Shown: positions 7,921 to 32,911, counted from the stretch's first letter. The stretch: 64,000 nucleotides of DNA from an uncultured Candidatus Poseidoniales archaeon (GCA_905182635.1 CAJJCM010000026.1:3568-67567); one strand, 5' to 3'. Made by a program: numbers and translations. The notes: a model not told the origin generated them from the letters alone.

Positions 7921-7957
7921 GGTGTGCGGTGCAGGTCGCTATTTTCAAACCCATTGC

Positions 7958-8410
7958 TCACCAGTCTTCCGGTATTTCGAGCGGAGAGAACAGTTGCCCG
8001 GGGCCTTTTGCCTTGGCCAGTTGGGTGCGTGAAAGGGCTTCCCAAGGGCGCAGTGCCAGTAATCCTTCTGCCAAAGAAGCATCAATTTCGACAAGTGTGA
8101 CACGAACAAGTGTTGCGAGAATATCCATTCGGTCTTCATCAATGATTTTGAATATTTTTTCAAGTTCAAAACTAAATTCAGGGTCATTACCTTCCGGTGT
8201 TTCAATTGGCCATGGATGGGTCACCGTTTCAGGGAACGTTTGTTGAGTTGCACTAATATGTTCATCTAAAGAACGTGAAAGGCCAGCAATATGCTTGCTC
8301 AAGACAAGACTCACTTCAATCAAGGGCATACTCAATTGATTGATGAGATTGACCATGCGTTCTTGCATAGTCACCATGCCATCAACGGCCGAAGCCTTTT
8401 CTTCAGTCAT
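7958..8410 (-). CDS. Hypothetical acidic cytoplasmic protein lying between the giant surface-protein gene and the metallopeptidase gene on the same strand
   Basis: 150-aa ORF in the same orientation as both flanking genes, 10 nt downstream of the giant gene. No recognisable motif. Confidence 0.4.
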   Translation of the reverse strand: MTEEKASAVDGMVTMQERMVNLINQLSMPLIEVSLVLSKHIAGLSRSLDEHISATQQTFPETVTHPWPIETPEGNDPEFSFELEKIFKIIDEDRMDILATLVRVTLVEIDASLAEGLLALRPWEALSRTQLAKAKGPGQLFSPLEIPEDW

Positions 8411-8419
8411 AGCGACAAC

Positions 8420-13892: not shown

Positions 13893-16800
13893 TCAGTCTA
13901 TCTGACGTGAATCATACCGTATTGGAGAGGAGTCGCCACGAATGCCATCGTCCTCATCATCATGGACTTCAAACCAATCGACCATCCAATCACCATCCGT
14001 ATCCCAATTCATCGGATCTGAGCCTTCTGCAATGTGGTCATTATCCAAATCGAGTAAATACCAGCCGAATTCATGTTCACCAACTGCTCGAACAGGCGCA
14101 GTGTTTGGAGAACCAACATAGTAAATCTCCCAAGCATCTGTTCGGTTTCCAGCCAAATATATTTCATCATCACTTGAATCAAGAGAGAGGAAATTGATAT
14201 CTTTATCATCGACTAAGTATGCAAAACGGAAATCATTTCCATTGGATTTATCCATTTTCAAATAATTTTCAGCGCTTGAGCCATTCGAATCTAATTTCAA
14301 CAACGCGGCTCGCAATTGCCACCATTCAAGTACAATCTCTCCGTCATAAATCATGCCACTAAGGCGAACTGCATTCGGGGACGAGAGGTCGGAATCAGTG
14401 ATTGCATAGAATTCTTGGAAATTCGTATAGGGTTCATAGACACATCCAGCGCCTGTGCAATCCCAATTGCCATCTTGGTCAGGGTCATAATTCGCATCGA
14501 CTGGGTCAGCAGGATTCAAAGTAAACCATGTTGAAGATAAGTCTGGACGAGAGAGGACTCCTCCTGAGCCTTGCTGAGATAATGGCAAACAAGAATTTGT
14601 ATCGGTCGAACAAGTACCGCCAGTAGCAGCATCAATCCAAACGACTTGTATTTGCAAAAACGAACTGAAATTGTCGTTTAATTCATTCCATCCTTTGGAA
14701 TATTCAAACCAGTCCGGTAACATATCCCCATCGGTATCGTTATCACTTGGATTGATTCCATACTTGAACACTTCACGCCCATCTGAGAGGTTGAAGTCTT
14801 GTTGATGATAGACGACAACACCATTGGAAACAACCGTCGAATAGGAGACACTGTCTCCATCAGAATCGTTCAAATCAGGACGGGTCGAATTATCCCATTC
14901 CATTTTATTTGTAAATGGTAAGTCCCCAGTGCCGGATTGAATTATTGCTGTGCCAGGTGTGAACACTCGACCCGACCAAGAGCCTTGCTGAGCGGGTTGA
15001 TCGAAGGCAGAACGGTCATACCAGCCATCATGATCTCCATCATAATTGACATCCCAAGGATTCAATGGATTCGAGGCCCAATGGTTGATGGTTGAGGTAT
15101 CTTCCATTCCATACAAAGCATAACAGTATTCCCATCCATCCTCAATCCCGTCAGAATCGGAATCGGTACTCGTTGGGTCTGCAACTCCAAGCAGTGTTCG
15201 ATTGAAGTTATCGTTATCAAATTCGTTAATCATATCCATGCGGTCAGTACTTGATTGGCTCTTTGATACGAAATCAGTGTAAAGCGCTTGTTGAGCCTGT
15301 GCAAAAGTTATTCCAAGTTCTTCCATATACGCTTGCATAGCGTCATTTGCAAAATTTATAACTCCATCAGCAGCAGGAACCGAAAAGCGTGAGAGGTATT
15401 TCCCATAGGTCCGAGATTCCCATTCACGTAAATTCGAGAATCTCTCATCCATTGAAATATTACCATCACCGTCGCAATCGAAACTATCCCCATCAGTGTC
15501 AAGATTGACATCGTTATCGATGAGTGGATTCATACTCCAACGGTTCTCCTCCAAGTTCCATTCAGTAAACCAGTATTCAAATCCATCATACATGCCATCA
15601 TCATCCGTATCCGGATTGGTCGGGTCAGTCATGCCGAGGAGTGTTGAAAGAATAGCATTCGGTGGGACACCTGTCTGCCAATCATTGTAATCATTCAACA
15701 AACGCTTTCCACGAGTTTCTTTGGTGATGAGGATGTTGAAGACTCGCTGAGCTTTTTCTGTTGGTTGTTGTATATCTCCATCGAGGTGCAGGAGTGGGGC
15801 ATCAGAAGGATGTTCTAATCCATTCACTGGATTCTCAATGGCAACGGCAAATTCCTGACGGTCAATAAGGCCATCTCCATCACCATCAAATCCACCATCA
15901 CCAGGCACCAGCGGATTAAGAGTCCAAGTCTGAGCCGATACATTCCAAGAAGTAAACAGTTGTTCAATTCCGTCGATCATCCCGTCTCCGTCTGTGTCGA
16001 CGTTGTTCGGGTCAGAAGTCCAACCGGTCAAGTTCACTTGGTCAGAGGTGATAAAGGAGCCAAAGGAGTATTCTACAGAGTATCCTGGCCATTGTTGTAA
16101 GGCAAAAGCAGAACCAATAGTCGTAACAAACCATTGAGGTGCTGAGCGGTTTTGGTCAGTTTCAGTGAATTCAGGAGATATTGCATTGTATTCTTCCCAA
16201 TTCGCCATACCGTCGTCATCGGCATCTTCCCACCGGTCTGAAGAATCCAATGGATTCAAAGTCCACGCATCGTCAAGAACATTCCAACGAGCGAACCAAA
16301 TTTCCCAGCCATCAGGCATTCCATCGGAATCAGAATCCGCATCGAACGGGTCTGCAGAGCCCCTGTCAGTTAGTGTTTGAAGGGCAGTAACCGAGCCTGA
16401 TGCTCGGTCTCCGAAATTCGCTTCAGGTATTCCTAATGCCGCAACATTCGTGAATAAATCGGTCGAGAAGCCATTTGGAATTGGCTCACCATCAAACGTT
16501 TGGTTTCCTGTGAACAAATTTGAACGGATATGGAATTCCAAATAATTGACAAAGGCTTCAGAATCGTCTAACACTCCATCGTGGTTGATATCATATCCAT
16601 CCCCGTCAGGATTTTTAAAGAGGTCGGAAGCGTTGAGTGGGTTCACTCCTTTCCGAGAAGGGTCCCATGTGCAGGCACCACCTGATTCCCAGCCGTCTGG
16701 CAAAGAATCACCGTCAGAATCAATGTTATTTGGGTCCGCCTCAAACCATTCCAAGGTCGAGTTCACAGACTCACCATGCGATTCAAATAACAATCCTTCA

Positions 16801-19646
16801 AGACCAGCACCACGAACAAGTGACCACTGGTATTCGCAAAGGTTGGCCAGACCATCACGGTCGGCATCCCAATTCGCGTCTTCAGCTCGATTTGGGTCAA
16901 GTGTCCAATTATTGCCTCCATTAAACGAAGAGCCAACCCAACGTCGATGATGAATTTCCCACCCATCTGGCATGCCGTCCCCATCACTGTCAAAATTGGT
17001 TGGGTCCGTACCTCTATCGCTACTTGAAAGGCCGAGGTAAGTCGCATTGGCTGCTTGACCAGCCGCGTCATCACAAATGTACTCCATTTGAACCGAATAA
17101 TGGCACCAAAGTGTAGAGTCTTCATAGAAGAAACCGAAATACTCGCTGCCATCACCCAATCCATCACCATCGGTGTCGCCAACTGCGGGATTGGTCGAAT
17201 TGTACCCGTTTGGAGATTGAGTTTCATAACGGTATTCGTCCAGATTCGTCCAGAGACGTTCCAAGAATCCATCGCCTGCTTGGTCAAGATCAATTCCATC
17301 GCTATCGGTATCGAAAATCGAATCCCAAGGGTCGGTCGGGTCCAATCCATTGGCAACCTCCCATCCATCAGGCATTCCATCGTTATCAGAATCATTCGCA
17401 CCAGGGTTCATCAATTCCAAATTGGCATATCGCCCAGGCGATGAACCGGTGAAGATGGTAGTATTATCACCGATAGTAATTGTTTGAAGAGTGACTATTT
17501 CTCCAAAAACATCCTCCTGATTTTGGAATCCATAGACGGCAGAATAGTCACCGGAAATCGCCCAGAGGCCTTTGTCAGAACCAACTAAGATCTCGTCACC
17601 TGTGGAAATGAGCGAGTGGATGTTGTTGTAATTTCGAGTATATCTTCCTTCGATACCCGGATGTTCAAGCAACCCGCTGTGTGAGATTTTTGTGTCAACA
17701 AGGTTCATCATATGAACTCCCGAAGGAGTGCCGAACCACAGAACCTGTGAATTGGTTGGATTCGGGCCATCGAGTGCCATGGTTCGCACTTCAGCAGGAT
17801 TAGCAACCAGGCCGAGAGAAAGTGACCGTAATTCATCAATTGCTGTTGGATAAGGTGTGACTTCTGGCGTATAATAAAACCTCCACACCGCCTCAAAATC
17901 ACCACGTGCTGTTGTCGTTTCTCCGAACAACAATCCTCGGTCAGTCCCCACATACAGAGTATTATTCCCTCCACCTGCGGCGCCGTGAGCAATTCCTGTC
18001 ACCATGGCATTCGATAGAGTCAGTGCAGTTTCGAGTCCCGTTGCAATGTCGTATTGTTGTGCGATTTGCGAGGAAGTTGTAACCTCGAACACAGCGCCTT
18101 CACCCGATTGACCTAAGCCAATGATATGTTGATTTTGACCATCGAGATTCAAGAGAGAGAGTGCATAGAGTTCGTCAGAAAGTGACCAATCCCAAGTGGT
18201 CAGTGGGCCAATATTTCCATCAGCTTGAAGTGGGGCAATTGCCAAACCAATATTTGTTGCAATCGCTAAAGCAAAGGATGAGTCTTGAGCAGTGAGAAGT
18301 AATGATTCATGCAACTCAACCCCTTGAGGCATCCAGTGGTCGAAACTGACCATTTGGTCATAGTTAAAGACCGTTAATCCATAACGAGTCGTCGCATATA
18401 AAATCGCACCATCTTCATCAAGGTCCCGAATATCATGGTGTATGAGGCTCATTTCATCCGCTGGTGCGATAAAACTCAACGGAACAAACTGATGGCTGTC
18501 GAGTTGATTCCCGAGTAAAACAGATTTCATCCCAGGTAGAACCGAATTACCATCATCAGCATATACAAAGTATTCTTCCAAGGTAGAAAGTGATTCGCCT
18601 AAAGAAAGCGCAGTGAGAGTACGGCTCACATCGGGTGAAATTCCACCATCACGGTTCGCATCCCATCCGTCCGCATCGGGGTCGAGTAAAGCATTGGTTC
18701 GGTTCAAAGGTTCAAGACCGAAATGCACTTCCCATCCGTCAGGGATTCCATCTCCAAAAGAAGGAAACAGTCGGCGAATAGAAAATCCATCCCAATGATA
18801 GCGGTCCGAATCTGCAAGCAGAGGGTCGGTCCCGAGCCAAAGGTCTTCATCGATAACCATCGATGCGTTTTCAGTACAAGCGGAGAGTAAATGTTTGAAT
18901 GTTGCATTTTGGCCTGCGGGGATAAATGGCCAACTTTTGAAGATTGAACCTTCTGGCAAAGTAGCCGAACACCACATCCCATCCAACTCAGTGGTATGAT
19001 TCAATGGTGCACCTTGAATGTATTCTTCCGGTGATGAAAAACGTTCTGTCGTCGACAATACTCCGTCGCGATTAACATCAAATCCATCTTCATCTGGGTC
19101 GTCATACAGATCAGAGCTGTTCAAAGGGTCAAAACTCTGGCATTCATACTTCTGAGTAAAGATGTTGTAACCACCTACGCGCTCACACATGTATGCTTCG
19201 TATCCATCCGGCATTCCATCGCCATCCGTATCGGACATACGAGGGTCAAGATAACTTCGCTCACCCTCGCCATCGACTGTACCAGTCAGTCCACGAGGAA
19301 ATCCTGGGGAGGTACAATTTGCTGGATACGGCCAGCAAAATTCTTCGGTAGCATTCAAACCATCGTGGTCTTGGTCGATAAAAGCATCCGAGGCATTGTT
19401 GCTGTCCATTCCCTGCATGATGACTGCACGGCCATCGACCGTGCTCCAATTCAGCCATTCATCAAACAAATTTTCATGGACATCGGGTATTTTGTCTCCA
19501 TCACTGTCAGTTGTCGGAGGCTTGGAGCCATCCGTCGTATCTGGATGCAGATTCGAAACTGACGAAACTGCAGGAAATTGGGACATGAACATTAAACTCG
19601 CGACAACGGCAAGAGTGGTTAGAAGAGTGGTTAAACTACGACGCAT
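13893..19646 (-). CDS. Giant (1917 aa) secreted calcium-binding repeat protein carrying more than 20 thrombospondin-type-3-like DxDxDG repeats
   Basis: N-terminal signal peptide (LTTLLTTLAVVASLMFMSQFPAVSS). Repeated DTDGDGMPDGWE, DSDGDSLPDGWE, DTDDDGMYDGFE and DTDGDWMVDWFE type loops along the whole length. Central beta-propeller-like region. No C-terminal transmembrane segment. Confidence 0.85.
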   Translation of the reverse strand: MRRSLTTLLTTLAVVASLMFMSQFPAVSSVSNLHPDTTDGSKPPTTDSDGDKIPDVHENLFDEWLNWSTVDGRAVIMQGMDSNNASDAFIDQDHDGLNATEEFCWPYPANCTSPGFPRGLTGTVDGEGERSYLDPRMSDTDGDGMPDGYEAYMCERVGGYNIFTQKYECQSFDPLNSSDLYDDPDEDGFDVNRDGVLSTTERFSSPEEYIQGAPLNHTTELDGMWCSATLPEGSIFKSWPFIPAGQNATFKHLLSACTENASMVIDEDLWLGTDPLLADSDRYHWDGFSIRRLFPSFGDGIPDGWEVHFGLEPLNRTNALLDPDADGWDANRDGGISPDVSRTLTALSLGESLSTLEEYFVYADDGNSVLPGMKSVLLGNQLDSHQFVPLSFIAPADEMSLIHHDIRDLDEDGAILYATTRYGLTVFNYDQMVSFDHWMPQGVELHESLLLTAQDSSFALAIATNIGLAIAPLQADGNIGPLTTWDWSLSDELYALSLLNLDGQNQHIIGLGQSGEGAVFEVTTSSQIAQQYDIATGLETALTLSNAMVTGIAHGAAGGGNNTLYVGTDRGLLFGETTTARGDFEAVWRFYYTPEVTPYPTAIDELRSLSLGLVANPAEVRTMALDGPNPTNSQVLWFGTPSGVHMMNLVDTKISHSGLLEHPGIEGRYTRNYNNIHSLISTGDEILVGSDKGLWAISGDYSAVYGFQNQEDVFGEIVTLQTITIGDNTTIFTGSSPGRYANLELMNPGANDSDNDGMPDGWEVANGLDPTDPWDSIFDTDSDGIDLDQAGDGFLERLWTNLDEYRYETQSPNGYNSTNPAVGDTDGDGLGDGSEYFGFFYEDSTLWCHYSVQMEYICDDAAGQAANATYLGLSSSDRGTDPTNFDSDGDGMPDGWEIHHRRWVGSSFNGGNNWTLDPNRAEDANWDADRDGLANLCEYQWSLVRGAGLEGLLFESHGESVNSTLEWFEADPNNIDSDGDSLPDGWESGGACTWDPSRKGVNPLNASDLFKNPDGDGYDINHDGVLDDSEAFVNYLEFHIRSNLFTGNQTFDGEPIPNGFSTDLFTNVAALGIPEANFGDRASGSVTALQTLTDRGSADPFDADSDSDGMPDGWEIWFARWNVLDDAWTLNPLDSSDRWEDADDDGMANWEEYNAISPEFTETDQNRSAPQWFVTTIGSAFALQQWPGYSVEYSFGSFITSDQVNLTGWTSDPNNVDTDGDGMIDGIEQLFTSWNVSAQTWTLNPLVPGDGGFDGDGDGLIDRQEFAVAIENPVNGLEHPSDAPLLHLDGDIQQPTEKAQRVFNILITKETRGKRLLNDYNDWQTGVPPNAILSTLLGMTDPTNPDTDDDGMYDGFEYWFTEWNLEENRWSMNPLIDNDVNLDTDGDSFDCDGDGNISMDERFSNLREWESRTYGKYLSRFSVPAADGVINFANDAMQAYMEELGITFAQAQQALYTDFVSKSQSSTDRMDMINEFDNDNFNRTLLGVADPTSTDSDSDGIEDGWEYCYALYGMEDTSTINHWASNPLNPWDVNYDGDHDGWYDRSAFDQPAQQGSWSGRVFTPGTAIIQSGTGDLPFTNKMEWDNSTRPDLNDSDGDSVSYSTVVSNGVVVYHQQDFNLSDGREVFKYGINPSDNDTDGDMLPDWFEYSKGWNELNDNFSSFLQIQVVWIDAATGGTCSTDTNSCLPLSQQGSGGVLSRPDLSSTWFTLNPADPVDANYDPDQDGNWDCTGAGCVYEPYTNFQEFYAITDSDLSSPNAVRLSGMIYDGEIVLEWWQLRAALLKLDSNGSSAENYLKMDKSNGNDFRFAYLVDDKDINFLSLDSSDDEIYLAGNRTDAWEIYYVGSPNTAPVRAVGEHEFGWYLLDLDNDHIAEGSDPMNWDTDGDWMVDWFEVHDDEDDGIRGDSSPIRYDSRQID

Positions 19647-19817: not shown

Positions 19818-20696
19818 TTGCATCCTAACTATGCGGTTTCTTCAAAGGCCGCTCGCGCTCGGTGCATATTGATTCAGATGGTCATGACTCTTACGCATCT
19901 TGGTACAGGGAGTCGCGGGAACGCGACTTTGCTCGAAACTGAGCAGGCAAAAGTATTGATTGACCAAGGATTCAGCGGAGCACAACTGGAAAAAAGACTG
20001 GGGCGATTGAATATTCACCCGACTGAACTTGATTTTATTTTCATCAGCCACCACCATGGAGACCACGGCGGAGGTGCGGCAGTAGCGCAAAAACGTTGGG
20101 GAATTAAGATTCAAGCAAATCATCGAACCGCTGATGAACTCGGCCTACTTCCGGAACTCACGCACTATTTCGAATCGTTAGACATGATTCATGTCAGTCA
20201 AGATTTAGCAATTCTCCCCGTCCCAGTACCTCATTCTGGTGCTGATAATGTCGCCTTCATCGCCAGCCATAATGGTGGCCGAGCAGCAGTGATTACAGAT
20301 CTTGGTTCTTGGACAGATGAATTGGTCACTCACGTTCGAGGCTGTGAACACATCGCCATTGAAGCAAATTATGACCATAATCGCTTGATGAACGGACCTT
20401 ACCCCTACTCACTGAAAGACCGAATTAGTGGCCGTGGAGGGCACTTATCCAATGACCAAACAGGACAATTTCTTGCCCAGGTTTGCACCCCTGCTACGAA
20501 GAGCATTTCTCTTACACATTTATCTGAGAAAAATAATCAGCCACACCTCGCTGAATCGACGGTCTTGTATCATATCGATGAAGTATTTACTGGAGATATT
20601 TCAATATCGCTTCAAGATGGCCCTGAATGCTCCCACTATATCGGCAAGAGTGAGCAAGTCGAGCCATCCAACGCACTCAATCCGACGCATCGGTAA
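19818..20696 (+). CDS. MBL-fold metallo-hydrolase (metallo-beta-lactamase superfamily)
   Basis: HxHxDH motif (SHHHGDHGGG), LGTGS N-terminal motif, and downstream His/Asp ligands. The start may be the internal ATG (MVMTLTHLGTGS) near 19881. Confidence 0.8.
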   Translation: MHPNYAVSSKAARARCILIQMVMTLTHLGTGSRGNATLLETEQAKVLIDQGFSGAQLEKRLGRLNIHPTELDFIFISHHHGDHGGGAAVAQKRWGIKIQANHRTADELGLLPELTHYFESLDMIHVSQDLAILPVPVPHSGADNVAFIASHNGGRAAVITDLGSWTDELVTHVRGCEHIAIEANYDHNRLMNGPYPYSLKDRISGRGGHLSNDQTGQFLAQVCTPATKSISLTHLSEKNNQPHLAESTVLYHIDEVFTGDISISLQDGPECSHYIGKSEQVEPSNALNPTHR

Positions 20697-20706
20697 TCTC
20701 TCGAAT

Positions 20707-20726
20707 CACCCCCCTAAGGGGGGGTG
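20707..20726 (+). terminator. GC-rich hairpin (8-bp stem CACCCCCC/GGGGGGTG, 4-nt loop) 11 nt after the MBL stop codon and upstream of the pilin-like operon. A transcript-processing or attenuation element is possible.
   Basis: Palindrome cacccccc-taag-ggggggtg read directly from the sequence. No T-tract follows. Confidence 0.3.
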
Positions 20727-20743
20727 TGAAGGTCAATGGCTAA

Positions 20744-21829
20744 ATGATGCCAAAGGGTGTGCCAACTGTGAACGCACATTCAAGCACCGTTTTGCGCCCG
20801 TCCCTTCGCCGGGAACAAAGGGCTGTGAGCGAAGTGCTTGGCGTGGTCATGATGCTCGCTATGGTGATTACAATCATGGGTGGTGTCTGGGTCTTTTTGA
20901 ATCCATACATCTCTGACTTTGAGGATAACACAAATTGGAACAGTGCAAATGGTATTGCTGAACGATTCCAGGATCGTATCGACGTTGCTGGAAGCGCCCC
21001 TGAAGGCACGGGTATTCGCCATACACTTGCGTTGCAATCAACCATGATTCAGCCGATTGAAAAAGTCGAAACGTGGACGATTGCTGCTGATTTGACTCCA
21101 TACGATGCAGTGACTGTTCGGGATGCAAACAGTTCAACTCTTGGGATTTTAGCGATGAATGAAACCGCTCGGAGTATCTCTGTTGAGACTGAAACGGGTA
21201 CTGAACATTATTTCTTCAACTCTTCACGCCAAGAGGTATTGATAACGCACACATCATCTCGACAACATTGGATGTCAGTGACTGTTTTTAATGCCGATGG
21301 AATTGCCCTCCACCGGAGTGTATCATACATCGTTTCGGGTATTCAAATCTCGACTTCTTTAGGACTCGGAGAGCATCAGATTGCTTTGATGAATGAAGCA
21401 CGAGTTGAGCGGTTCCCGAATGAGCCATGGCGGGTCACGCGATTCCCAAACCTCGAAATCGATACGTTGGTCAACGGTGAGTTCCGACTTTCATTGGTTC
21501 TCAATGATGTTACGATTAATGGCACACTCGGTTCGGGAAACAAAGTTGGTATGACTATGATTTCACTCGGACCGATGATGCTGTTCACTGGACATGCCTA
21601 TAATGTCAAATTTACAGTCATCAATGCCCTCAATGATTTAGTCACTCCCCAATACCATGACCGAATGCTTGACGAATACACTTTGAATCGAGCATCGGGA
21701 ACATTGGACACTTACATCGGATATGCCCCCTTTATGCGTGCAAGTGGCGCTGATGGATTTACCGTTGAAACTCAAGGCGCACAATTATTCTTAGAAGTTG
21801 ATGTCAAACGTGTGGAGGTTTCCAGATGA
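20744..21829 (+). CDS. Archaeal type-IV-pilin-like protein (class-III signal peptide) 1
   Basis: N-terminus RREQRAVSEVLGVVMMLAMVITIMGG matches the archaeal pilin N-terminal domain pattern: [KR]-[AG] followed by a hydrophobic helix, as in RAVSPVIGVILMVAI. The alternative GTG/TTG starts would give a short leader. The stop overlaps the next gene's start (ATGA). Confidence 0.65.
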   Translation: MMPKGVPTVNAHSSTVLRPSLRREQRAVSEVLGVVMMLAMVITIMGGVWVFLNPYISDFEDNTNWNSANGIAERFQDRIDVAGSAPEGTGIRHTLALQSTMIQPIEKVETWTIAADLTPYDAVTVRDANSSTLGILAMNETARSISVETETGTEHYFFNSSRQEVLITHTSSRQHWMSVTVFNADGIALHRSVSYIVSGIQISTSLGLGEHQIALMNEARVERFPNEPWRVTRFPNLEIDTLVNGEFRLSLVLNDVTINGTLGSGNKVGMTMISLGPMMLFTGHAYNVKFTVINALNDLVTPQYHDRMLDEYTLNRASGTLDTYIGYAPFMRASGADGFTVETQGAQLFLEVDVKRVEVSR

Positions 21830-24036
21830 GATCGAGTATGCAGCGAAATGAAGAGGCAGTTTCAGCAGCGGTTGCAACCGTATTGTTATTCGGTGGAGTC
21901 GTGTCAATTATTGCGATGATGATGGTCTCAATGATCCCAGTCATCGAAGAACTTGAGGGGTCAATCGAACGGCATGATATGTCATCTCAAATGACGCTCT
22001 TAGCACATCAAACTGCAGCACTTAGTGAAACGGGGATGCCTGGTGACTCAACTGAAATTGAATTGGTTCCTGTCGATGGGACGCTCAATTGGAACATGAT
22101 GCAGAGCAGCATGTGGTATTCTGCTACATGGGTCGATGATACAAGCTTCCGAGTACAAGGGGCCCTTGACTACGATGATGAATTCAGTGTCCGTCACCCG
22201 GAATCAATGAATACGGCAGTTTGTGTTGATGACCTACGACTTGGTCCTGCAAATCCGTACATGTTCACCATCCCTGAATGGGCGGAAAGTGTCTCGATGA
22301 CTGCATCACCCGGACTTGCACTCCCCCTTGGCCCCATTGAAATTGAAATTTGGAATCAGTCTGTCAAAGAATCTGAACGTGAACTCATGGTTGATGGGAT
22401 GTATACACTTGATGCCAGTTCATACGGTGAAATCGTCATCCACTCATCTCACCAACTTCATCTTCTGATTTCCAGGGGAGATGGTGGCACTGCACTCATG
22501 CAGGCAAATGACCCAAGTCCTGTTGATTCTACCGGGACCTCCTGGTCACTCCCATTACCGAGTGGCACCAGCAAAATTCATGTTGTGAGCGAAGTGGCCA
22601 ATCAAATCATCGTGACAAACCAAACTTCAACTTCCTATTACGCATTACCATCGAATCAGAATCGTGTTGGTGTGACATTCAATCATCAATTCTCTCTTGA
22701 TTCTGCCGAAGTGATACACATCACGACAAGTGCACCTTCACGGTTAGTCGTTCAGACGAATATTGAGTCTGATGTAGGGCAAATTGCTTGGCCAAGTGTC
22801 GATGGGCAATTCCTTGGGCATTCCTTTGTTACTCCTTCTCTCGAGGGCGAGTTCGTCTTCACCAACCCAGGTTTAAACAGCGTAACCGTCACTTGGAGAG
22901 GTGGGGGTCTTTCTGTCGCACCAAATCAGAGTGTGATATTCGATTGGCCACCAGCAGAAATTGATGGGGCGCCGATGCTCGATGCCAATGGTGATCTGTT
23001 CGTTTCATGGCGACGAGATACCAACGGTTCCGGATTACAAGTTATTCCGGCTGATGATACGGGTGCGTTATCTGGCCAATTTCACACACTCCATGTTGAT
23101 GGCACCAACGTCAACAAAATTCATCTTGCGCGAGCAGGAATTGATGCGAAATGGAACTTGACGGGAAGCACGACCTCGAATGGTACTCTTTACGATGAAG
23201 TAACCCAGGCGACTTTGAATCTCAATCAAGGCCTCAACCAAATGGAAATAGAGGATGGTCATGCGCTTCGGCTGTATCATTTACGGGGTCAAGATGGACT
23301 CATACAAGTTCGTCATGATGGTGCTCAACGCTGCCTATCCATCAATGTCCAGGCAAGTGGTTGGATCTCATCCCAACTACCGTGGCAATCGATGAGTGGA
23401 AGAAGTCAAGTCGACCTAAAAAATGCTTGGAGAGCAGGAACGCACCCTGCAAGTATGCAAATCACCTTGATCGGTGTAGATGGTGCCTCAACACATGCGA
23501 ACTTGGGTACCGTTTGGGGATTCCATCTCTCACGTCTTAGTTATGAGTTTAGGTCCTCAATAGTGGGGATGGAAGTGGCATATGTAGGAGGTGCTGTCGT
23601 GACCAACCATCCCGAATTTGAGCCTTATATCATCGTCCCACCTTCCGATCGAGGTGGCCCCGGTCCGAGATTTGCTGCAACCATCCCTTCACTTCATCCA
23701 ACACAATACAGTGTAAGTGGATCAGGGAGTATGAATTTGGATATCGAACTCGCTGACCGTTCATCACTTGCATCCGCAACGGCCTTTGAGGTGCGCAGGG
23801 GGTGGTCAAACCCCTATGGTGTAGCGATTGCTGATGCTTCTGCAGACGGTCTAGAATCAAGTGAAGACTGGACGATTTACCCCGGGAGGATTGACTTGCT
23901 TACCGATTATGTAGGATGGGTCCCTGACCCCTCTTACGCTACTTCGGAAGCAATTTGGCACACCAATGGTCAACCAATTCAATTTACCTTACAAATAGCT
24001 TCACTGAATGCACACATGACCGAGGTGATTTCATGA
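21826..24036 (+). CDS. Large (736 aa) archaeal pilin-like or pilus-associated protein with a class-III signal peptide
   Basis: N-terminus MQRNEEAVSAAVATVLLFGGVVSIIAMMMV. ATGA overlaps with both neighbouring genes indicate translational coupling. Confidence 0.65.
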   Translation: MRSSMQRNEEAVSAAVATVLLFGGVVSIIAMMMVSMIPVIEELEGSIERHDMSSQMTLLAHQTAALSETGMPGDSTEIELVPVDGTLNWNMMQSSMWYSATWVDDTSFRVQGALDYDDEFSVRHPESMNTAVCVDDLRLGPANPYMFTIPEWAESVSMTASPGLALPLGPIEIEIWNQSVKESERELMVDGMYTLDASSYGEIVIHSSHQLHLLISRGDGGTALMQANDPSPVDSTGTSWSLPLPSGTSKIHVVSEVANQIIVTNQTSTSYYALPSNQNRVGVTFNHQFSLDSAEVIHITTSAPSRLVVQTNIESDVGQIAWPSVDGQFLGHSFVTPSLEGEFVFTNPGLNSVTVTWRGGGLSVAPNQSVIFDWPPAEIDGAPMLDANGDLFVSWRRDTNGSGLQVIPADDTGALSGQFHTLHVDGTNVNKIHLARAGIDAKWNLTGSTTSNGTLYDEVTQATLNLNQGLNQMEIEDGHALRLYHLRGQDGLIQVRHDGAQRCLSINVQASGWISSQLPWQSMSGRSQVDLKNAWRAGTHPASMQITLIGVDGASTHANLGTVWGFHLSRLSYEFRSSIVGMEVAYVGGAVVTNHPEFEPYIIVPPSDRGGPGPRFAATIPSLHPTQYSVSGSGSMNLDIELADRSSLASATAFEVRRGWSNPYGVAIADASADGLESSEDWTIYPGRIDLLTDYVGWVPDPSYATSEAIWHTNGQPIQFTLQIASLNAHMTEVIS

Positions 24037-24509
24037 ATAAAGTTTCATTGAAGCATGACGAACGTGCAGCGGCAACTGAGTTGGGATATATTTTTACTTT
24101 CCTTCTTGGAGTATTACTTCTTACCATGTTCAGTTTATGGGCGTATGATATCGAAACTGCGACACGGGAACGATGGAATGAAAATGCTATCCGTTCAAAT
24201 TTAGATGACATCGCTGCAGCGGTGGAAAGAGCAGATGAAGCAAGTCGGATGGGTTCGGTGGAGTACGCAGAGAAAGTGACGTGGCGATTAACTGAAGCAG
24301 ATGAATATCGAATGACACTTATTTTGACTGACACATCAATTGAGTTGATTGATGATGGAGGTACTTTGGATACAAATGTTTCAATTTCAGGTACGGGTAC
24401 TGGAATCCACCACGGCACAGTTGTTCTTGCCGGAGTCACATCTGTATGGATTGTTCACTCGGATGGTATTACATCTTTGCAATACGATAGACCTCAATCA
24501 AATGATTGA
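24033..24509 (+). CDS. Small pilin-like protein (putative class-III signal peptide), third gene of the operon
   Basis: Start MNKVSLKHDERAAATELGYIFTFLLGVLLLTMF: a charged residue, then small residues, then a hydrophobic helix. ATGA overlap with the upstream gene. Confidence 0.5.
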   Translation: MNKVSLKHDERAAATELGYIFTFLLGVLLLTMFSLWAYDIETATRERWNENAIRSNLDDIAAAVERADEASRMGSVEYAEKVTWRLTEADEYRMTLILTDTSIELIDDGGTLDTNVSISGTGTGIHHGTVVLAGVTSVWIVHSDGITSLQYDRPQSND

Positions 24510-24510
24510 T

Positions 24511-27036
24511 TCATCGACCCATGACTGCGGAATGAACTTGAGCTTGAACTTCTCGCATTCTCGATTTTGCACCGAGTTCTCTGAACACTGACAATGCCCT
24601 CTGCAAGTATTCCATTCGACGAGGTTTGTCAGTCGCAACTCCGCCAAGGCGTGAAAGTAATTCTCCGATTTGCATACGGAGATCATTTGCCTCAGCAATA
24701 ACCAATGCTTCCCGATAATGTTCCATTGCTTCTTCTGCCCGACCTGAATCCTGCAAAACTTCACCGAGCAGAATTGTGATTTCAACCAACGATAATAAGT
24801 CACCTGATTGACTCATAGTTTCGAGTGCTATCGAGTAATGATGGGAGGCTACATCCCCATCCCCGACTTTAGCATAGTATCGACCAAGTACAGCTTGGGC
24901 ACGAGCATGCAACAAGACATCATCTCCGCCATCGGTATTTTCGAATGCTTGGAGTGCATGGCTTCTGGCTCGGTCTATTTCGCCGAGTTCAATGAATGCC
25001 CGGGCAAGAGTAAGTTGAGTCCCAATGAGTTCTGTATCATTTGAGCCTTGTAAAATAGTCTCGACTTCACCGTAGGCTTCCAATGCTTTGGGGATGTCAT
25101 TCTTCCGACGGAGTAAATATCCCATATTATTGTAGGAACGTGCTGCACCTTTTGCATCTCCGAACTGAATAAACTTCTCAAGTGCATCATGATGCATAAC
25201 GAGTGCTTTGTCCGTATCACCTTGTTTGAGAGCGATGTCAGCCAAAGCGGAGAGGACTTCAGCATCAAGGCGTGTCACCTTGGAGGTTGATCCGAGCGAT
25301 TGTATTGAGAGGAATGCTTCTTCCGCTTCCAAAAATCGACCAAGCAGGACCAGGATTTCACCCTGGAGTTGTAAAACACGCATTTGAACCTGTGAATCAA
25401 GTGATTCAAGAGAAAGACCTTCCATCAGCCCAAGTAATTCCATGTGGCCTTGAGCAACGAGGTCTCTCCCTTCATCGGCGATGAGTAATGCTGCATCTCC
25501 ACCCTCTCCTGAGCGAATGAGATGAAAAATGCGCTCTATTACAATACCTGCAGAAGGGTTTTGTTTTTCATACCATATGCAACATTTTGCGTGAAATTCT
25601 TTCTTTGTATTTTCATCAAGGCTACGCAAGAGAAACTCTCGAATTAAATCGTGAACATCGTAAAAATCTACATCGCCTTGTCGTGCAAGGCCTTGTTCAA
25701 CCAATGCATCGAGTTCATCGGTATCCAAACCTTGCTCAGCGAGTGCACTCAAAACTACAGGTTCTCGATAAATTGCAAGTGCAGAGAGTACACGCTTTTG
25801 TTCAGCACTCAATTTTGAAAAGATTTCAACAGCGACATAATTTTCCAATGTCTCATGGAATGCGCCTGCCGAAGCACCTCGGTTGATGAGTTCCAATACA
25901 AGTGGGTGTCCTCGGGATAAACCGTGAATATGCAGCCATTGCTCGTCATCGAGGTCTACGAAACTGCTCAAAAGCTGCCGCCCAGCATCAGAATCGAGGC
26001 CATCGAGTGGAAGAACTAAACTTGCAATTCGTCCTTCTGCATCTTTGGTGGGGACAACTGGTTTGAAGGAACGTGAAAAGATGACAAGGCCAATTTCTTC
26101 TTCACTCCCCAGCAAAGCGAGCGACATCGCTTGGAATGTTTGATGGAGTGTTGTATCTGCGACTTTATGAAAGTCATCAATGACGATCAAGGTTGGAGTT
26201 CCCTCTAGAGAGTCAACCAGTAAACGTGCAGCATCAGCGGGTTGAGGTACCGGTGTTGCAGCCAAATAATCTGCAAAAGTCGAATCACCGATGTTCGCTA
26301 ACCAATCAGCAACTGCCTCAAAAAAGGAACGTGAACCTTCCCAATCTTGACATCGATGATATAAGAGATTTCGTCGATGCATAAACCGCTCGATTAATTT
26401 TGATGCAATCGTAGTTTTACCAATTCCAGCAATTCCTGGCACCAATAAAGTGGTAGCTCGTGCATCGATAAGGCTCGCCATATTGTCCATCTCTTTTTCC
26501 CGGCCATAGAAATGTCGCAGCCGTGGCAAATCTCCAAGCGATGTTACTAGTTGTTTTTCAACGTGTTTTGAAAGATCTCTCTCGACCAAGTCAGCAGACA
26601 AGATACGGGTATCCAATACACAATTATCATCCATGTAGCGGATGATATCAACAGGTCGCATTGAGAAGTCAAGATGGTCATTGATTTCACCCAAAGTAGA
26701 ATTAATAATTACCCCATCTTCCATGATGCTACGTAATTGGAAACTCCGTAACCGTACCCAAGTCTCCTCTGAAACATTGATTCCTGGGTCTGTCAAAAAG
26801 TACGCCTTCCGTTTTCGAGAAACGCCTGAAACATGGGCTTGGCGTTCAATCAAGAGGCCTTGGTCTTTCAATCCCGCAATTGCACGAGGAACATTTGACC
26901 GAGCGATTGCCACAGCATTGGCAATCCCCATCTGTGAAAGGGCAAATGGCACCTCGACGCTACTCTTGAAGTCGGAGTAATCAAGCAAATGCAAGAGTAT
27001 TCTCTCTTGCACTCCAGGTTTCGGTTGAAGAGCCAT
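24511..27036 (-). CDS. STAND-like regulator with an N-terminal winged-helix DNA-binding domain, a P-loop NTPase domain and C-terminal TPR repeats
   Basis: Winged-helix-like N-terminus (GIANAVAIARSNVPRAIAGLKDQGLLIE). Walker A GIAGIGKTT. Walker B LIVIDDFH. C-terminal half made of TPR-like repeats (ALEAYGEV..., ARSHALQAFE..., AMEHYREAL...). Confidence 0.8.
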   Translation of the reverse strand: MALQPKPGVQERILLHLLDYSDFKSSVEVPFALSQMGIANAVAIARSNVPRAIAGLKDQGLLIERQAHVSGVSRKRKAYFLTDPGINVSEETWVRLRSFQLRSIMEDGVIINSTLGEINDHLDFSMRPVDIIRYMDDNCVLDTRILSADLVERDLSKHVEKQLVTSLGDLPRLRHFYGREKEMDNMASLIDARATTLLVPGIAGIGKTTIASKLIERFMHRRNLLYHRCQDWEGSRSFFEAVADWLANIGDSTFADYLAATPVPQPADAARLLVDSLEGTPTLIVIDDFHKVADTTLHQTFQAMSLALLGSEEEIGLVIFSRSFKPVVPTKDAEGRIASLVLPLDGLDSDAGRQLLSSFVDLDDEQWLHIHGLSRGHPLVLELINRGASAGAFHETLENYVAVEIFSKLSAEQKRVLSALAIYREPVVLSALAEQGLDTDELDALVEQGLARQGDVDFYDVHDLIREFLLRSLDENTKKEFHAKCCIWYEKQNPSAGIVIERIFHLIRSGEGGDAALLIADEGRDLVAQGHMELLGLMEGLSLESLDSQVQMRVLQLQGEILVLLGRFLEAEEAFLSIQSLGSTSKVTRLDAEVLSALADIALKQGDTDKALVMHHDALEKFIQFGDAKGAARSYNNMGYLLRRKNDIPKALEAYGEVETILQGSNDTELIGTQLTLARAFIELGEIDRARSHALQAFENTDGGDDVLLHARAQAVLGRYYAKVGDGDVASHHYSIALETMSQSGDLLSLVEITILLGEVLQDSGRAEEAMEHYREALVIAEANDLRMQIGELLSRLGGVATDKPRRMEYLQRALSVFRELGAKSRMREVQAQVHSAVMGR

Positions 27037-27095: not shown

Positions 27096-30000
27096 TCACT
27101 GTTCAGGAATATAATTTGGGTCTGGAACCCAGTTATTCGAATCTGCATCCCATATCCATCCCGGATGTTGGGCAACATGTGGTGTAGCAGAAACTTGTTG
27201 CTGAACCACCGCAGGAGTCGTTGGAACCTGTGCCGGAGGAATGCTAACGAGCTCTTTACGGGCTTTTGCCCAAGCATACGGGTCTGCAGTCACCTGTTCT
27301 TCAGCAGCCATCAACTCTGCCTCTTCATCAAGGTCGTCGTATTCGACTTGGAAGAAGAACATTCCAGCACCCAAGAGAATGATCACTCCGACAATAATTG
27401 CCAAAATCCATCCGAAGTTTGAACTCGAGGCCTCTCCATCTCCAACACTGAGTTGAAACATAGCTTCGGAATTTTCACCGGGCAATCTAAAGACTTGGTC
27501 ATCCATTTCGAAAATGATGTTACGCGACCCTTCATTTCCAGCGAGTTGATTACTTGAGATTTCCATACTCCAAGTAGCATCAGCATTGACACGTGTTGAG
27601 TTAAGTCTCAGACCGCTCAAACTATCGTAGCGTGCTTCAATGACGCTGTTTGGTAATCCTTGACCGCTGAAATAGGCTGGCGAACCAGGGCCTAATGGGC
27701 CGTCTCCATCTCGTGTGACGGTGAATGACACTTCAACGACAATTATGTTTACTTTGGCAGAAAATGCTACCGAATCATAGGAATCTCTGGCTTCAAACAT
27801 CAAACCTATAAGCGACCATTCTGAAATATCGTCAGGAAGACCTGTTACAAATGCAGGATTATATTTCACAACTCCATTCGCGTCAAATGTTAGATAATTC
27901 ACGTAATCGTCATCTTCAAAGTTTCCTGGATCGTCATAGACATCGAAGGTGAGTCCATTTGTACTACTACTCACAGGGCCATCAGGGTCAGAAAAGTGAT
28001 CAGTCAAATCGATGCTAATTCCACTATTACAGCGATCTTGTTTTTGTGTATTTGAATCACAGAAAAGAGTAATTGTACTTACCCAATTTGAGTAGTTGAA
28101 CTCCGGGATGAGGTTGTCTGCATCACTCGGATTGTCGATGGTGATTCGGATACTGGATTCCACCGAGTAACTCTTCCCATCCCATGATTTGATGAACAAT
28201 TCATATTGTTGGTCGTGTATAAGATTAGAAGTGTCCCAGGTCGTCTGCCATCCGCCGTTTGGGGCGAAAGTAGTGACTGGGTCCGGGCCGTTATTGATTT
28301 TGGCCCCACTGGCTAAATCATAGATTGTTATTTCAACTCGGGTTACCAAACCATCGTTGTCAAAAGCCCAACCCTCAATCAATTGAGTTTCATTGGCGCG
28401 AAGAATATCGTTGAGTACAGGAGAATTCACTGTGACAAATGGAATTGCGTTTTCAGTGTTCACGCTAATTGTGCGGCTTTCATAGGCACAATCCATCCAA
28501 CTGCTCTTAAGATTACAGAAATCACTGTCAGATGCCCAAATACGGAAAGTATAATCTCCAGTTTGTAATTCTTGGAACATCCAGTCATATGCCCAGGCAG
28601 TTGAACCAGGGATATCAAAATTAGCAGTGTAATCATTTGGCCCGTTAATATCAAACCAAATTGAATTGATGTCACTGCCCCAAGTACCTGAATAGGGGTC
28701 GCTCGCAGTGCCCGTGAATGTCACTTTGGCATTGTCGTGGAAAGTTCCATCATTTGGAGTATTAACCAAAATGCTTGGAGCAACGAGATTGAGTTTGTAC
28801 TTCCGGACTTCCACTGGAGAGTAATCCAATCCGTCATATGAACGAACGCGGAATGTCACATCGCCTTCACCTTCTGGGTGAGCAGACATCTCCCAATCAA
28901 AGTTCCAGGTCTTGAAAGGATGATTCGATTTTGTAATCATGCCGGCAGCACCTGATACATCAATTGCAGAATACCAATCACTTGAACCAGGAGGTTTAAC
29001 TTCAACTCGCTTGATAATACCAAATTGATTTTGATACGCAACGAAGTCAGAATTGCCGTAAGGTCCGGAGATGCCGTCCCATGAAGTACCTGTTAACGTA
29101 ACAGTTGTCGCAAATGAGAATCCATCGTTTTGTGTGACGGTTACGCTCGGTTTGAGGTTATCAAGATTGATCACATCATCAATTGAGCCACTGAGAACAA
29201 AGTCGAATTCCTTTTGCCCTTTACCAAACATGTAAGCTTCTACAAAGTAAAACGGCAATTCGCGGCCATTGGTACAATCGGCATCTTCAGAATCCACTTT
29301 TGTATCGCCGTCATTGTCATAGCCGTCTGCACAAGAATTCTCATCGAGCCAGACAGCAGGAATGGTATTATCATCCTGAACTCGGACATTAAGTTCACCG
29401 ACCAAATGATTCCAATCCCGGTCAAGTAAGAAATCTGAAGGAAGGGATACTTCAGGTGTAAATCCAAAGGCGTCTGTTGTAAGGGTGTAGAGCGGCAAAC
29501 CTGTTGCATCACGAATGATCACTGTTGCATCGACAACGTTGCTGTTCTTTGCTTTGACTTGGTAACGCACCAGTTCACCTTCTCGAACTTGACTTCCCCA
29601 AGCCGAGTTTTGATTTTGCACATGGATTTTAGATGAATCAAAATTCTGTAAATTCGCATATGAGAACACAGTGGAATTCTCTATGACTTCAAGGGCCATT
29701 GGCATAAAAGCCGGAGGCATAAGGGAAGTCGATGGAACCAATAGACATTCTGCGAGGATTAACGGGCATTCTGGACTGAGCCAACTCAGTTGAACTGGAT
29801 ACAATTCATTGCCACCAGCATCCGGAATAAATTCCGATTGAACAATAACTCGTGATTCAGTAATATTGTAGACTTGGGAGGCATTTGTATACGTATTACC
29901 GGAGAAGTACGCAATAGAGCCATACTTGCTGCCAGCGTTATCATCATAATGAGAAATATTTACCGCAAATCCTGTAACTTCGATTGTATTTCTCTGAGCA

Positions 30001-31687: not shown

Positions 31688-32911
31688 TCAACAAGAAGGA
31701 ATCTGAATCGCCAAGTCCTGATACCAATCCAAGGCTTGAAGTTGACCGTATCCCCAATGGTCGTCGTGGGCAACAGAATCATCATACTTGAGCGAGGAGT
31801 TCATCAATGAATATTTTACTTGATCAATGCATTCACCATTCGAGGATGATGTCGGTCTGTACTCTGGAAATGCTTCGAGAAGCAAAGATAATGCGCCAGT
31901 GACGAAGACTGTTGAATCTGAAGTGCCACTGCTCGAATACCAATTGTTACCCATGCCAGTACTGATAATATTCTCACCAGGCGCGATGATTTCAGGCTTC
32001 ATGTGTGGATTCTGTCGAAGAGTTCCATCGGAAAGAATTTGTGAGCCTGCAGAAGAATTCACCCATACTGTTTGTTCTTGAGTTGATGCCCCAACCGTAA
32101 TCACGCGTGGAACATTGCCTGGGACTGAAACTAAACCGTCGTCCGCATCACCACCATCGTTACCCGCAGCAGCGACAACAAATATGCCTGAATCAACCGC
32201 TCGGCGAACAGCAGATACGCTTGAGCCTTCGGTATGCATCTCGATGTTCTGCTCACCACCAAGTGAAAGTGAAATAATATCAGCCTTGAATTCATCTTGA
32301 CACCATGAGATTGCATTTGCCACTGTTTGTTCTGAACCACTGTTCATGTCATCCTCATCAGCAGCTAAAGCAGCAACCATTGCTAGAGTGATATTTGGGG
32401 CGATACCTAATTGATGGCTTCCCGATACAAGAATTCCCGCCATCAGGGTGCCGTGGGCGATAAATCCGTAATCAATCGGTGCATTCGAACTACCAATCAT
32501 ATCTTTGAACGTCACCTCGACTTCAGAAAAGGCAGGATTACTCAAATCCAAACCAGTATCGACCATACATACCTTGACCCCAGCACCCGTAAGACCAAGT
32601 TCGGAAAAATCATTGAATTGAGATTGTTCATTCGCCCATTCAGATTTTGGTGGTGACAGTTCAATAAACAGTAAACCGGAATTCCACACGACGAGTAGGA
32701 TAATGACAAGGACTGCAAAGATTACTCCATTGGTAGCCAGAATCCTCTTTCGTCGTAATTGAGGCATAGGTATGGCATCTAAGGGTGCCCATCCCGTCAC
32801 TTCAGCACGCCAACCATCTTGGAACCCAACTGCGGAAGGGTCAATGGCGGAAAGAATGCGTGAATCTTCGGGTTCAGGGAGATATTCAAAGCTCTCTAAT
32901 CCCTTCATCAT
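31688..32911 (-). CDS. Membrane-anchored subtilisin-like serine protease (peptidase S8)
   Basis: Catalytic Asp VKVCMVDTGLD, His HGTLMAGIL and Ser GTSDSTVFVTGALSLL. N-terminal transmembrane anchor RKRILATNGVIFAVLVIILLVVW. Confidence 0.85.
   Translation of the reverse strand: MMKGLESFEYLPEPEDSRILSAIDPSAVGFQDGWRAEVTGWAPLDAIPMPQLRRKRILATNGVIFAVLVIILLVVWNSGLLFIELSPPKSEWANEQSQFNDFSELGLTGAGVKVCMVDTGLDLSNPAFSEVEVTFKDMIGSSNAPIDYGFIAHGTLMAGILVSGSHQLGIAPNITLAMVAALAADEDDMNSGSEQTVANAISWCQDEFKADIISLSLGGEQNIEMHTEGSSVSAVRRAVDSGIFVVAAAGNDGGDADDGLVSVPGNVPRVITVGASTQEQTVWVNSSAGSQILSDGTLRQNPHMKPEIIAPGENIISTGMGNNWYSSSGTSDSTVFVTGALSLLLEAFPEYRPTSSSNGECIDQVKYSLMNSSLKYDDSVAHDDHWGYGQLQALDWYQDLAIQIPSC

Follow-up and report, generated by a model that had tools for sequence, protein, structure and literature searches.

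Three overlapping genes for pilin-like proteins in an order-wide conserved envelope-gene block of the Poseidoniales

Poseidoniales are dominant, uncultured archaea of the surface ocean. A 64-kb stretch of DNA from one of them (uncultured Candidatus Poseidoniales archaeon, GCA_905182635.1 CAJJCM010000026.1:3568-67567), hereafter the window, carries three consecutive genes whose products begin like type IV prepilins, and raises the question of what such proteins may do with no pilus motor encoded beside them. The window is given as one strand and all coordinates are counted from its first letter. The three genes, collectively termed the trio, are as follows:

20744..21829, plus strand: pil361, a 361-residue pilin-like protein (alignments, site logo, weak Pfam matches)
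21826..24036, plus strand: pil736, a 736-residue pilin-like protein (alignments, site logo, DUF7289 score, AlphaFold2 (AF2) model)
24033..24509, plus strand: pil158, a 158-residue pilin-like protein (alignments, site logo, AF2 model)

The interpretation that we favour, with a probability of about 0.5, is that the trio forms a lineage-specific, prepilin-type surface complex resembling minor pilins, pilus tips or adhesins, in which pil736 would be the exposed variable subunit and which would be processed and assembled by components encoded in trans.

The open reading frames (ORFs) of the trio measure 361, 736 and 158 residues in the ORF listing, as an earlier note on this DNA had given them, the third being 184 residues long when read from a TTG at 23955 and 158 residues from the ATG at 24033. 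The same note had described ATGA start/stop overlaps linking the genes, and both junctions, pil361/pil736 and pil736/pil158, do read ATGA. A scan of one genome per species found a relative of pil158 in 251 GTDB species representatives; the best 80 of these 251, together with 12 metagenomic loci, constitute the 92 loci (L001-L092) compared here. Overlaps of 4 nt or 1 nt are conserved in 71/73 and 72/76 related loci for the first and second junction, respectively, which implies that the trio is translationally coupled and would therefore be expressed in roughly stoichiometric amounts.

Each trio protein possesses a single hydrophobic segment, which is N-terminal, spans ~22-25 residues, is preceded by a charged leader and starts directly after an [R/E]-A motif. 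The predicted processing sites, with a slash marking the cleaved bond, are RA/VSEVLG in pil361, EA/VSAAVA in pil736 and RA/AATELG in pil158. The predicted leader of pil361 comprises residues 1-27 (nt 20744-20824), with cleavage at RA/VSEVLGVVMMLAMV and a Glu at +3, and it is at V28 that invariance begins in the homologue alignment. Shorter leaders are predicted for pil736 (residues 1-11, nt 21826-21858, cleavage at EA/VSAAVATVLLF) and pil158 (residues 1-12, nt 24033-24068, cleavage at RA/AATELGYIFTFLLGV, Glu at +4). Across 74-78 loci from ~75 species the leaders are variable, only Ala or Gly occurs at position -1 and invariance sets in from +1, as displayed by the site logos of pil361 ([DE][EQD][RDS..][AG]/VSE[IV][LM]GV, 74 loci), pil736 (DE[ED]A/VSAA[VI]AT, 78 loci) and pil158 (D[ET]x[AG]/AATE[LI]GY, 78 loci). 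An acidic residue occupies +3/+4 in pil361 and pil158 and is missing from the mature N-terminus of pil736, while position -2 is frequently acidic or neutral instead of Lys or Arg. The processing sites studied in the adhesion pilins of Haloferax volcanii read RAVS and DAVS (PMC4371748, Table 1), and the trio sites are of the same type, with an acidic -2 residue tolerated here too. Sites were assigned from the conservation logos together with these published processing sites; a FlaFind-like regular expression matched pil736 only and was not relied on. The short charged leader, the Gly or Ala at -1 and the ~20 hydrophobic residues characteristic of class III signals are found in all three proteins. 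Ordinary Sec signals, the competing prediction named in the earlier note, are judged unlikely, given that the trio proteins have hydrophobic stretches of 22-25 residues with no AxA-type site behind them. The conservation pattern thus supports the proposal, made in the earlier note for all three ORFs, that the N-termini of the trio have the properties of archaeal class III (prepilin-type) signals.

DUF7289, DUF7266 and Pilin_N are archaeal, mainly haloarchaeal families. They are the Pfam families nearest to the trio, and a profile search against Pilin_N and its kin, proposed earlier as a check, did return matches to all three, which are weak and lie below or at the borderline of the thresholds. 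Protein pil361 matches model positions 1-55 of DUF7289 (expectation value (E) 1.4e-4, 21.9 bits, below the gathering score) and Pilin_N (E 3.9e-4, 21.7 bits against a threshold of 25.2), and reaches 14.7 bits with TIGR02537, the cut-off of which is 20; divergent orthologues score a sub-threshold 14.7-16.9 bits with Pilin_N, which neither pil736 nor pil158 matched in the Pfam scan. For pil736 the DUF7289 model (PF23960) gives 27.2 bits against a gathering score of 27, over model positions 2-78 of 238 only, and orthologues score 18-22 bits. The resemblance of pil361 and pil736 to DUF7289 is limited to the N-terminal helix region (~first 80 residues in pil736), and many homologues bear a precomputed PF23960 mark. 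The match of pil158 to DUF7266 (PF23928) is poorer in the window (E 0.05, 13.9 bits against a threshold of 27.6), and 4/25 pil158 homologues match this family at E <=1. The orthologue in L011 reaches E 2e-5 and 24.7 bits (threshold 27.6) over model positions 4-141 of 145, and that in L012 reaches 16.6 bits over positions 2-143. This full-length, sub-threshold resemblance suggests a distant homology between pil158 and DUF7266.

Comparison by hhalign reveals that the three families share only their N-terminal ~45 residues (E 2e-4), and the trio proteins are therefore not tandem paralogues over their globular parts. A pil736 profile run against 1.84 billion representative proteins returned 134 matches, of which ~13 are full-length clusters, and no member outside marine group II (MGII); all named members are Poseidoniales, Thalassarchaeaceae among them. 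Close homologues come from sources named Candidatus Poseidoniaceae and marine group IIa, to which the window is assigned accordingly. Since the pil736 search found only MGII, the link to haloarchaea is drawn from the Pfam matches only. A tblastn search of the PLSDB plasmids with the most DUF7266-like orthologue, made for a haloarchaeal locus, found nothing, and neither did literature searches on DUF7289, DUF7266, DUF7287 and DUF7288. By N-terminal architecture and weak family matches the trio would consist of archaeal class III-signal pilin-like proteins, apparently specific to Poseidoniales and distantly related to the haloarchaeal DUF7289 and DUF7266 families. They are not filed as confirmed members of a pilin family because the thresholds were failed or reached marginally, no fold match was obtained and no machinery was identified.

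The AF2 model of pil158 (predicted local distance difference test (pLDDT) 76) displays a helix at residues 3-72 followed by a seven-strand beta domain and, as modelled, has the general lollipop shape of a pilin; sliding-clamp matches returned for it by Foldseek are noise. Structure prediction of pil736, also suggested in the earlier note, gave a confident all-beta middle and no informative fold match. Residues 110-567 are modelled as a series of beta-sandwich domains with pLDDT ~90, the N-terminal helices are of low confidence, residues 568-736 have pLDDT ~25, and a Foldseek search of the PDB returned only generic jelly-roll and cupin/Cry/C1q matches (TM-score <=0.12), which are uninformative. 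In pil736 the profiles of conservation and of AF2 confidence run opposite to each other: the stretch up to ~residue 150 and residues 571-720 are conserved, and the confidently folded middle is variable. Residues ~571-736 (window 23536-24036) are the most conserved of the protein and contain the invariant motifs GPGPRFAAT, RRGW..PYG and DYVGWVPDP. These profiles point to an exposed, fast-evolving middle flanked by conserved ends that may contact partners. Protein pil361 comprises a single N-terminal hydrophobic helix and a remainder of no recognised family. Within the trio pil158 is the most conserved, and no gene of the envelope-gene block in which the trio lies evolves faster than pil361 and pil736. 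In comparison with L009, L011 and L012, the most divergent loci compared, identity is 51-58% for a neighbouring regulator, 43-45% for a neighbouring giant protein, 39-45% for pil158 and only 31-34% for pil361 and pil736, a fast evolution that would be expected of exposed parts.

A mechanism compatible with these features can be proposed. Each protein would insert into the membrane through its N-terminal hydrophobic segment, an architecture that is observed in the sequence, and the charged leader would be removed after the conserved Ala/Gly by a prepilin peptidase of the PibD/ArlK type encoded elsewhere. The three conserved N-terminal helices may then pack into a small heteromeric, minor-pilin-like complex. 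In such a complex pil158 and pil361 would contribute the acidic residue typical of core-forming pilins, and pil736 would be the distal, exposed, adhesin-like subunit because it lacks the acidic residue and carries a fast-evolving beta-sandwich array. Assembly or extrusion would depend on an ATPase and a platform acting in trans, either ArlI/ArlJ or another TadC-type system reported for marine group IIa (MGIIa).

In bacteria, GspI-GspJ-GspK of type II secretion and PilVWX/FimU with PilY1 of type IVa pili constitute minor-pilin or pseudopilin tip complexes, and GspK, the largest minor pseudopilin, has no conserved Glu and caps the tip. The proposed complex would resemble GspI-J-K, or the tip and priming complexes that minor pilins form in bacterial type II secretion and in type IV pili, by a works-like analogy rather than by homology. 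As in GspIJK and PilVWX, a small, a medium and a large prepilin-type protein are encoded by adjacent, co-translated genes, and as in GspIJK the largest lacks the acidic residue and has an extra exposed domain while the others retain the residue. In contrast to GspIJK, to which neither sequence nor structural homology was detected, the trio has its acidic residue at +3/+4 instead of +5 and lacks neighbouring secretin, ATPase or platform genes.

Haloferax-type euryarchaeal pilin sets share with the trio the RAVS/DAVS-like class III sites, the tandem pilin-like genes and the location of ATPase/TadC genes elsewhere. DUF7289 and DUF7266 presumably correspond to the PilB4-type pilin set. In H. volcanii, PilA1-6 are served by PilB3/C3 in trans and the PilB4/C4 locus encodes 'two relatively large pilins' (PMC4371748; PMC4858521). 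Euryarchaeal sets also hold large all-beta 'minor pilin' paralogues of variable length, such as arCOG02911 with 250-550 aa (PMC4858521), which are comparable to the trio, although the largest trio member is bigger than those described (736-768 aa). Unlike the euryarchaeal sets, the trio displays no detectable similarity outside Poseidoniales in its globular parts, has no identified PilB/PilC partner and is fixed in a block of envelope genes. Similarly, Cuniculiplasma divulgatum, of the same phylum Thermoplasmatota, encodes its class III CdiP pilins far from the ATPase and platform: cdiPA and cdiPB lie ~500 kb from the machinery operon and a weakly expressed 'minor pilin' stands beside the major one (PMC12448462). 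In contrast, the filament structure of CdiPB, a small major pilin, has been solved, whereas the trio proteins are much larger, include no evident major pilin and bear no similarity to solved pilins. The Sulfolobus bindosome proteins are likewise large extracellular proteins with class III signals encoded away from the assembly ATPase, but they are recognisable solute-binding proteins beside ABC transporters, and the trio has neither such domains nor such neighbours.

Several observations weigh against a prepilin-type complex assembled in trans. Pfam scans, which covered nearly every window ORF of at least 150 aa, detected neither a T2SSE ATPase nor a T2SSF/TadC platform nor an A24 peptidase, in agreement with the earlier note that no pilus ATPase or platform gene is in the window, and none of the three occurs within ~10 kb of the trio in the 92 related loci. 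No candidate major pilin is present among the window proteins. The Pfam pilin-type scores are at or below gathering and, in pil361 and pil736, confined to the N-terminal segment; profile searches of PDB sequences gave nothing significant for any of the three families, and none of the solved pilins, archaellins or ArlF/G structures was matched to pil158 by Foldseek (best E 0.06, TM-score <=0.25). The architecture of pil736 is incomplete because its conserved C-terminal 170 residues did not fold in the monomer model; this region may need a partner, or the alignment may have been too shallow. The trio is present in UBA59 (L065), UBA60 (L035) and Guaymas26 (L052), which are missing from Tully's Table S3 of genomes with any flaI, flaJ or flagellin, and the UBA59 clade consists of three metagenome-assembled genomes (MAGs), 72-75% complete, none of which appears in that table. 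Dependence on the archaellum motor is therefore doubtful, and the pattern is suggestive of a trio independent of it. Finally, the near-universal retention of the trio in a rigid envelope block, streamlined marine group IIb (MGIIb) genomes included, is more reminiscent of a core envelope part than of an accessory pilus.

The lack of a nearby ATPase is itself established as not unusual for archaeal pilins: euryarchaeal sets often lie at a distance from the ATPase and TadC genes (PMC4858521), as do the pilin genes of Cuniculiplasma, a member of the Thermoplasmatales (PMC12448462). In MGII, flaH/I/J are reported for all MGIIa and only some MGIIb, and extra flaI, flaJ and tadC genes for the MGIIa MAGs of one North Sea study (PMC6461757; PMC6336850; PMC6864105); flaK is not reported in the cited MGII papers. 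Matching Tully's Table S3 to the loci places the archaellum operon on a contig other than that of the trio in NAT37, NP65, SP210, RS348 and SAT165, and FlaG is annotated inside the MGII archaellum operon.

The block in which the trio is embedded comprises ten genes over ~29 kb (window 13893-42593) and occurs in every Poseidoniaceae and Thalassarchaeaceae locus examined. Besides the trio it includes the following features:

13893..19646, minus strand: giant secreted protein of 1917 residues with TSP3-type repeats (TSP3_bac match)
19878..20696, plus strand: metallo-beta-lactamase (MBL)-fold metallo-hydrolase, 272 residues from ATG, cytoplasmic and without signal peptide (Pfam)
24511..27036, minus strand: STAND-type regulator of 841 residues (Pfam AAA_16, TPR_12, TPR_MalT, HTH_Crp_2)
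27096-31529, minus strand: beta-helix/Big_7 protein of 1477 residues with a C-terminal transmembrane anchor (Pfam)
31688-32911, minus strand: S8 subtilase (Pfam)
32979-42593, minus strand: STT3/AglB fusion of 3204 residues (Pfam)

The best 80 species-representative loci are all from Poseidoniales MAGs of both families, and in these and the 12 metagenomic loci gene order and strands are identical wherever the contig extends: giant TSP3 protein (minus), MBL (plus), pil361-pil736-pil158 (plus), STAND regulator (minus), beta-helix protein (minus), S8 subtilase (minus) and AglB fusion (minus). The 1917-residue giant, divergent from the MBL gene and present in all loci reaching it, has a Sec-like signal and no membrane anchor. 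The STAND protein, convergent with the trio, combines an N-terminal winged helix-turn-helix, an AAA_16 NTPase and a TPR array; it adjoins pil158 in 80/80 loci, is the best-conserved gene of the block and is a candidate regulator of it. The stops of pil158 and the STAND gene are 1 nt apart in the window (24509-24511), and in L009, of the Thalassarchaeaceae, their 3' ends overlap by 4 nt (L009:12708-12711); as these ends abut or overlap, there is no space for separate terminators. The beta-helix/Big_7 protein measures ~1,450 residues across loci. The AglB fusion is unusually large: its STT3 domain lies at ~residues 416-678 and is followed by >2,500 residues with CarboxypepD_reg/SdrD_B-like domains, and orthologues of 3146-3239 residues occupy the same position in most related loci, that of L009 being called at 2803.

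The order-wide invariance of the trio inside this ~30-kb block of surface-protein, glycosylation, protease and regulator genes is noteworthy. Published genomic surveys discuss as adhesion factors only the archaellum operon, thrombospondin-like proteins and flotillin, and the trio is not mentioned in the MGII genome literature searched. The block is a concrete candidate for the building and decoration of the cell surface and for particle attachment in Poseidoniales. If the trio proved an ordinary trans-assembled set of minor pilins, this would be a useful annotation and no surprise; if it acted independently of a motor, it would widen the known roles of prepilin-type proteins.

The block is also what brings forward the strongest alternative, a tentative one to which we attach clearly less weight, that the trio is a core membrane-anchored envelope stalk holding anchor-less giant glycoproteins, with no filament and no motor, and is retained in the membrane through its N-terminal helices, with or without cleavage by PibD. 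Such a scaffold would account for a block invariant in all 80 species-representative and 12 metagenomic loci of both families, for a pil158 relative being encoded in 251 species representatives, for a neighbouring 1917-residue giant with a Sec signal and no anchor, and for trio-bearing lineages with no reported flaI/flaJ; the conserved C-terminus of pil736, unfolded alone, is as expected of a partner-binding region, and PibD substrates outside pili do exist in the sugar-binding proteins of Sulfolobus (PMC4858521). However, the synteny may stem from a low rearrangement rate of these genomes and not from function, the argument from a missing ATPase is weakened by the incompleteness of MAGs and by KEGG-based searches in the cited papers that may have overlooked divergent PilB/TadC genes, and both an acidic residue at +3/+4 and a lollipop shape such as that of pil158 are traits of filament-forming subunits. 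A more specific version, in which the trio is not a pilus but a motor-independent stalk with class III signals that serves as the anchoring core for the AglB-glycosylated giants of the block, with the STAND regulator and the subtilase dedicated to it, appears unlikely; were it true, the type IV pilin module would have acquired a new function in those archaea that are most abundant in the surface ocean.

It is improbable that the trio proteins are uncleaved signal-anchor (type II) membrane proteins whose likeness to class III substrates is convergent. The sub-threshold or marginal Pfam matches, the often acidic or neutral -2 position and the lack of a structural match to pilins agree with that explanation, which nevertheless leaves unexplained why an invariant Ala/Gly and a motif containing polar residues (VSEVLG, AATELG) mark precisely the start of the helix in three otherwise unrelated proteins across ~75 species. 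Moreover, an acidic -2 residue is found in proven Haloferax pilins (DAVS), and the three families resemble at their N-termini both one another (E 2e-4) and DUF7289/Pilin_N.

An archaellum accessory role for genes located outside the arl operon, whether as an ArlF/ArlG-like stator or anchor or as an archaellum tip, is very unlikely. Its attraction lies in some pil361 homologues named 'FlaG/FlaF family flagellin' or 'flagellin-like protein' by the Joint Genome Institute, in the ArlF/G-like size of pil158 with its N-terminal helix and beta domain, and in the archaellum operon being found in all MGIIa (PMC6461757). It is opposed by the lack of any Arch_flagellin or FlaF/G family match at E <=0.1 in Pfam and NCBIfam, by Foldseek not matching the solved ArlF and ArlG, by the FlaG already present in the MGII archaellum operon on other contigs (those of the five MAGs named above) and by the occurrence of the trio in lineages with no detected archaellum genes.

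That the MBL gene and the trio function as a single operon, such as one for a pseudopilus for DNA uptake equipped with an MBL nuclease in the manner of ComG/ComEC, is hardly credible, since the location of MBL directly 5' of the trio and on its strand in every locus and the lack of a T-run terminator between them in the window are countered by a small cytoplasmic MBL protein that has no ComEC channel domain and reached no specific family, by T-runs or a 400-bp repeat-bearing spacer separating MBL from pil361 elsewhere, and by adjacency being uninformative in a block of ten fixed genes.

The earlier note had treated the MBL-fold hydrolase and the pilin-like genes as a set following a strong GC hairpin. 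The adjacency is real, as MBL lies upstream of the trio in every locus reaching that far, L011 included, and it is uninformative because every gene of the block is equally fixed; MBL is a positional neighbour and not a demonstrated partner of the trio. The ORF as listed spans 19818-20696 (292 residues from a TTG at 19818), and translation probably begins at the ATG at 19878, given homologues annotated with 270-273 residues. It matches Lactamase_B_2 (E 9e-13) and Lactamase_B (E 2e-12) in Pfam and no NCBIfam model above its cut-off; assignment as Apyc1 (anti-Pycsar) was rejected at 16.7 bits against a cut-off of 50. In L011, MBL lies at 7806-8585 (67% identical to the window MBL by tblastn) and is separated from pil361 by a ~400-bp spacer with GC-rich direct repeats (CCGTTCAGACCCTCG...); in this GC-rich lineage a spurious 244-residue minus-strand ORF had been called over the real MBL (L011:7569-9000). 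Between MBL and pil361 the window displays two further elements:

20707..20729, plus strand: perfect GC-rich hairpin tcacccccc-taa-ggggggtga, between MBL and pil361
20730..20743, plus strand: AGGTCAAT..CTAA element, directly 5' of the pil361 start (five-locus alignment)

The hairpin is thus present in the window as described, and is not a general feature of the locus: it is kept in the window and L001 only, other sequence or T-runs taking its place in L004, L005 and L007, and its candidacy as a conserved terminator was rejected given this restriction to close relatives. The terminator scan missed it because it has no T-tail. The columns of the AGGTCAAT..CTAA element, in contrast, are invariant in the five-locus alignment, in which the proteins are 47-85% identical, and an AGGT within it lies 10 nt 5' of the pil361 ATG. 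The AGGTCAAT..CTAAATGAT sequence before the pil361 start (20730-20749) is probably a ribosome binding site of the Shine-Dalgarno type. In the window only, a mini-ORF, ATGGCTAAATGA (M-A-K-stop), lies within 20730-20749 and overlaps the start of pil361.

Some minor observations concern the remainder of the block and its surroundings. In three long-read contigs, two of them labelled 'pilon' (L004:8918-10004, L005:13776-20702, L006:11083-13310), pil361, pil736, the STAND gene and the beta-helix gene are split into >=2 ORFs, probably through assembly frameshift errors rather than as pseudogenes. A second giant protein of 1816 residues, with no Pfam match and a seemingly Sec-type N-terminus (..NGRG/IMFVLFFIMVLSP..ADA), is encoded at window 8420-13870 on the minus strand; one such giant (L007, L008, L012) or two (most other metagenomic loci) precede the block. 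At window 50476-52257, on the plus strand, lies a 593-residue protein with sub-threshold matches to OB-fold, DUF4131 (ComEC N-terminal) and CBM_5_12 and a C-terminal TSP3, and a link between it and the MBL and pilin-like genes, 26 kb away, is unsupported. Further along the plus strand (53859-58775), a 1638-residue protein contains six LTD domains (E 3e-71), two phospholipase-D-like domains and one TSP3 repeat, an architecture reminiscent of a large secreted nuclease or phospholipase-like protein.

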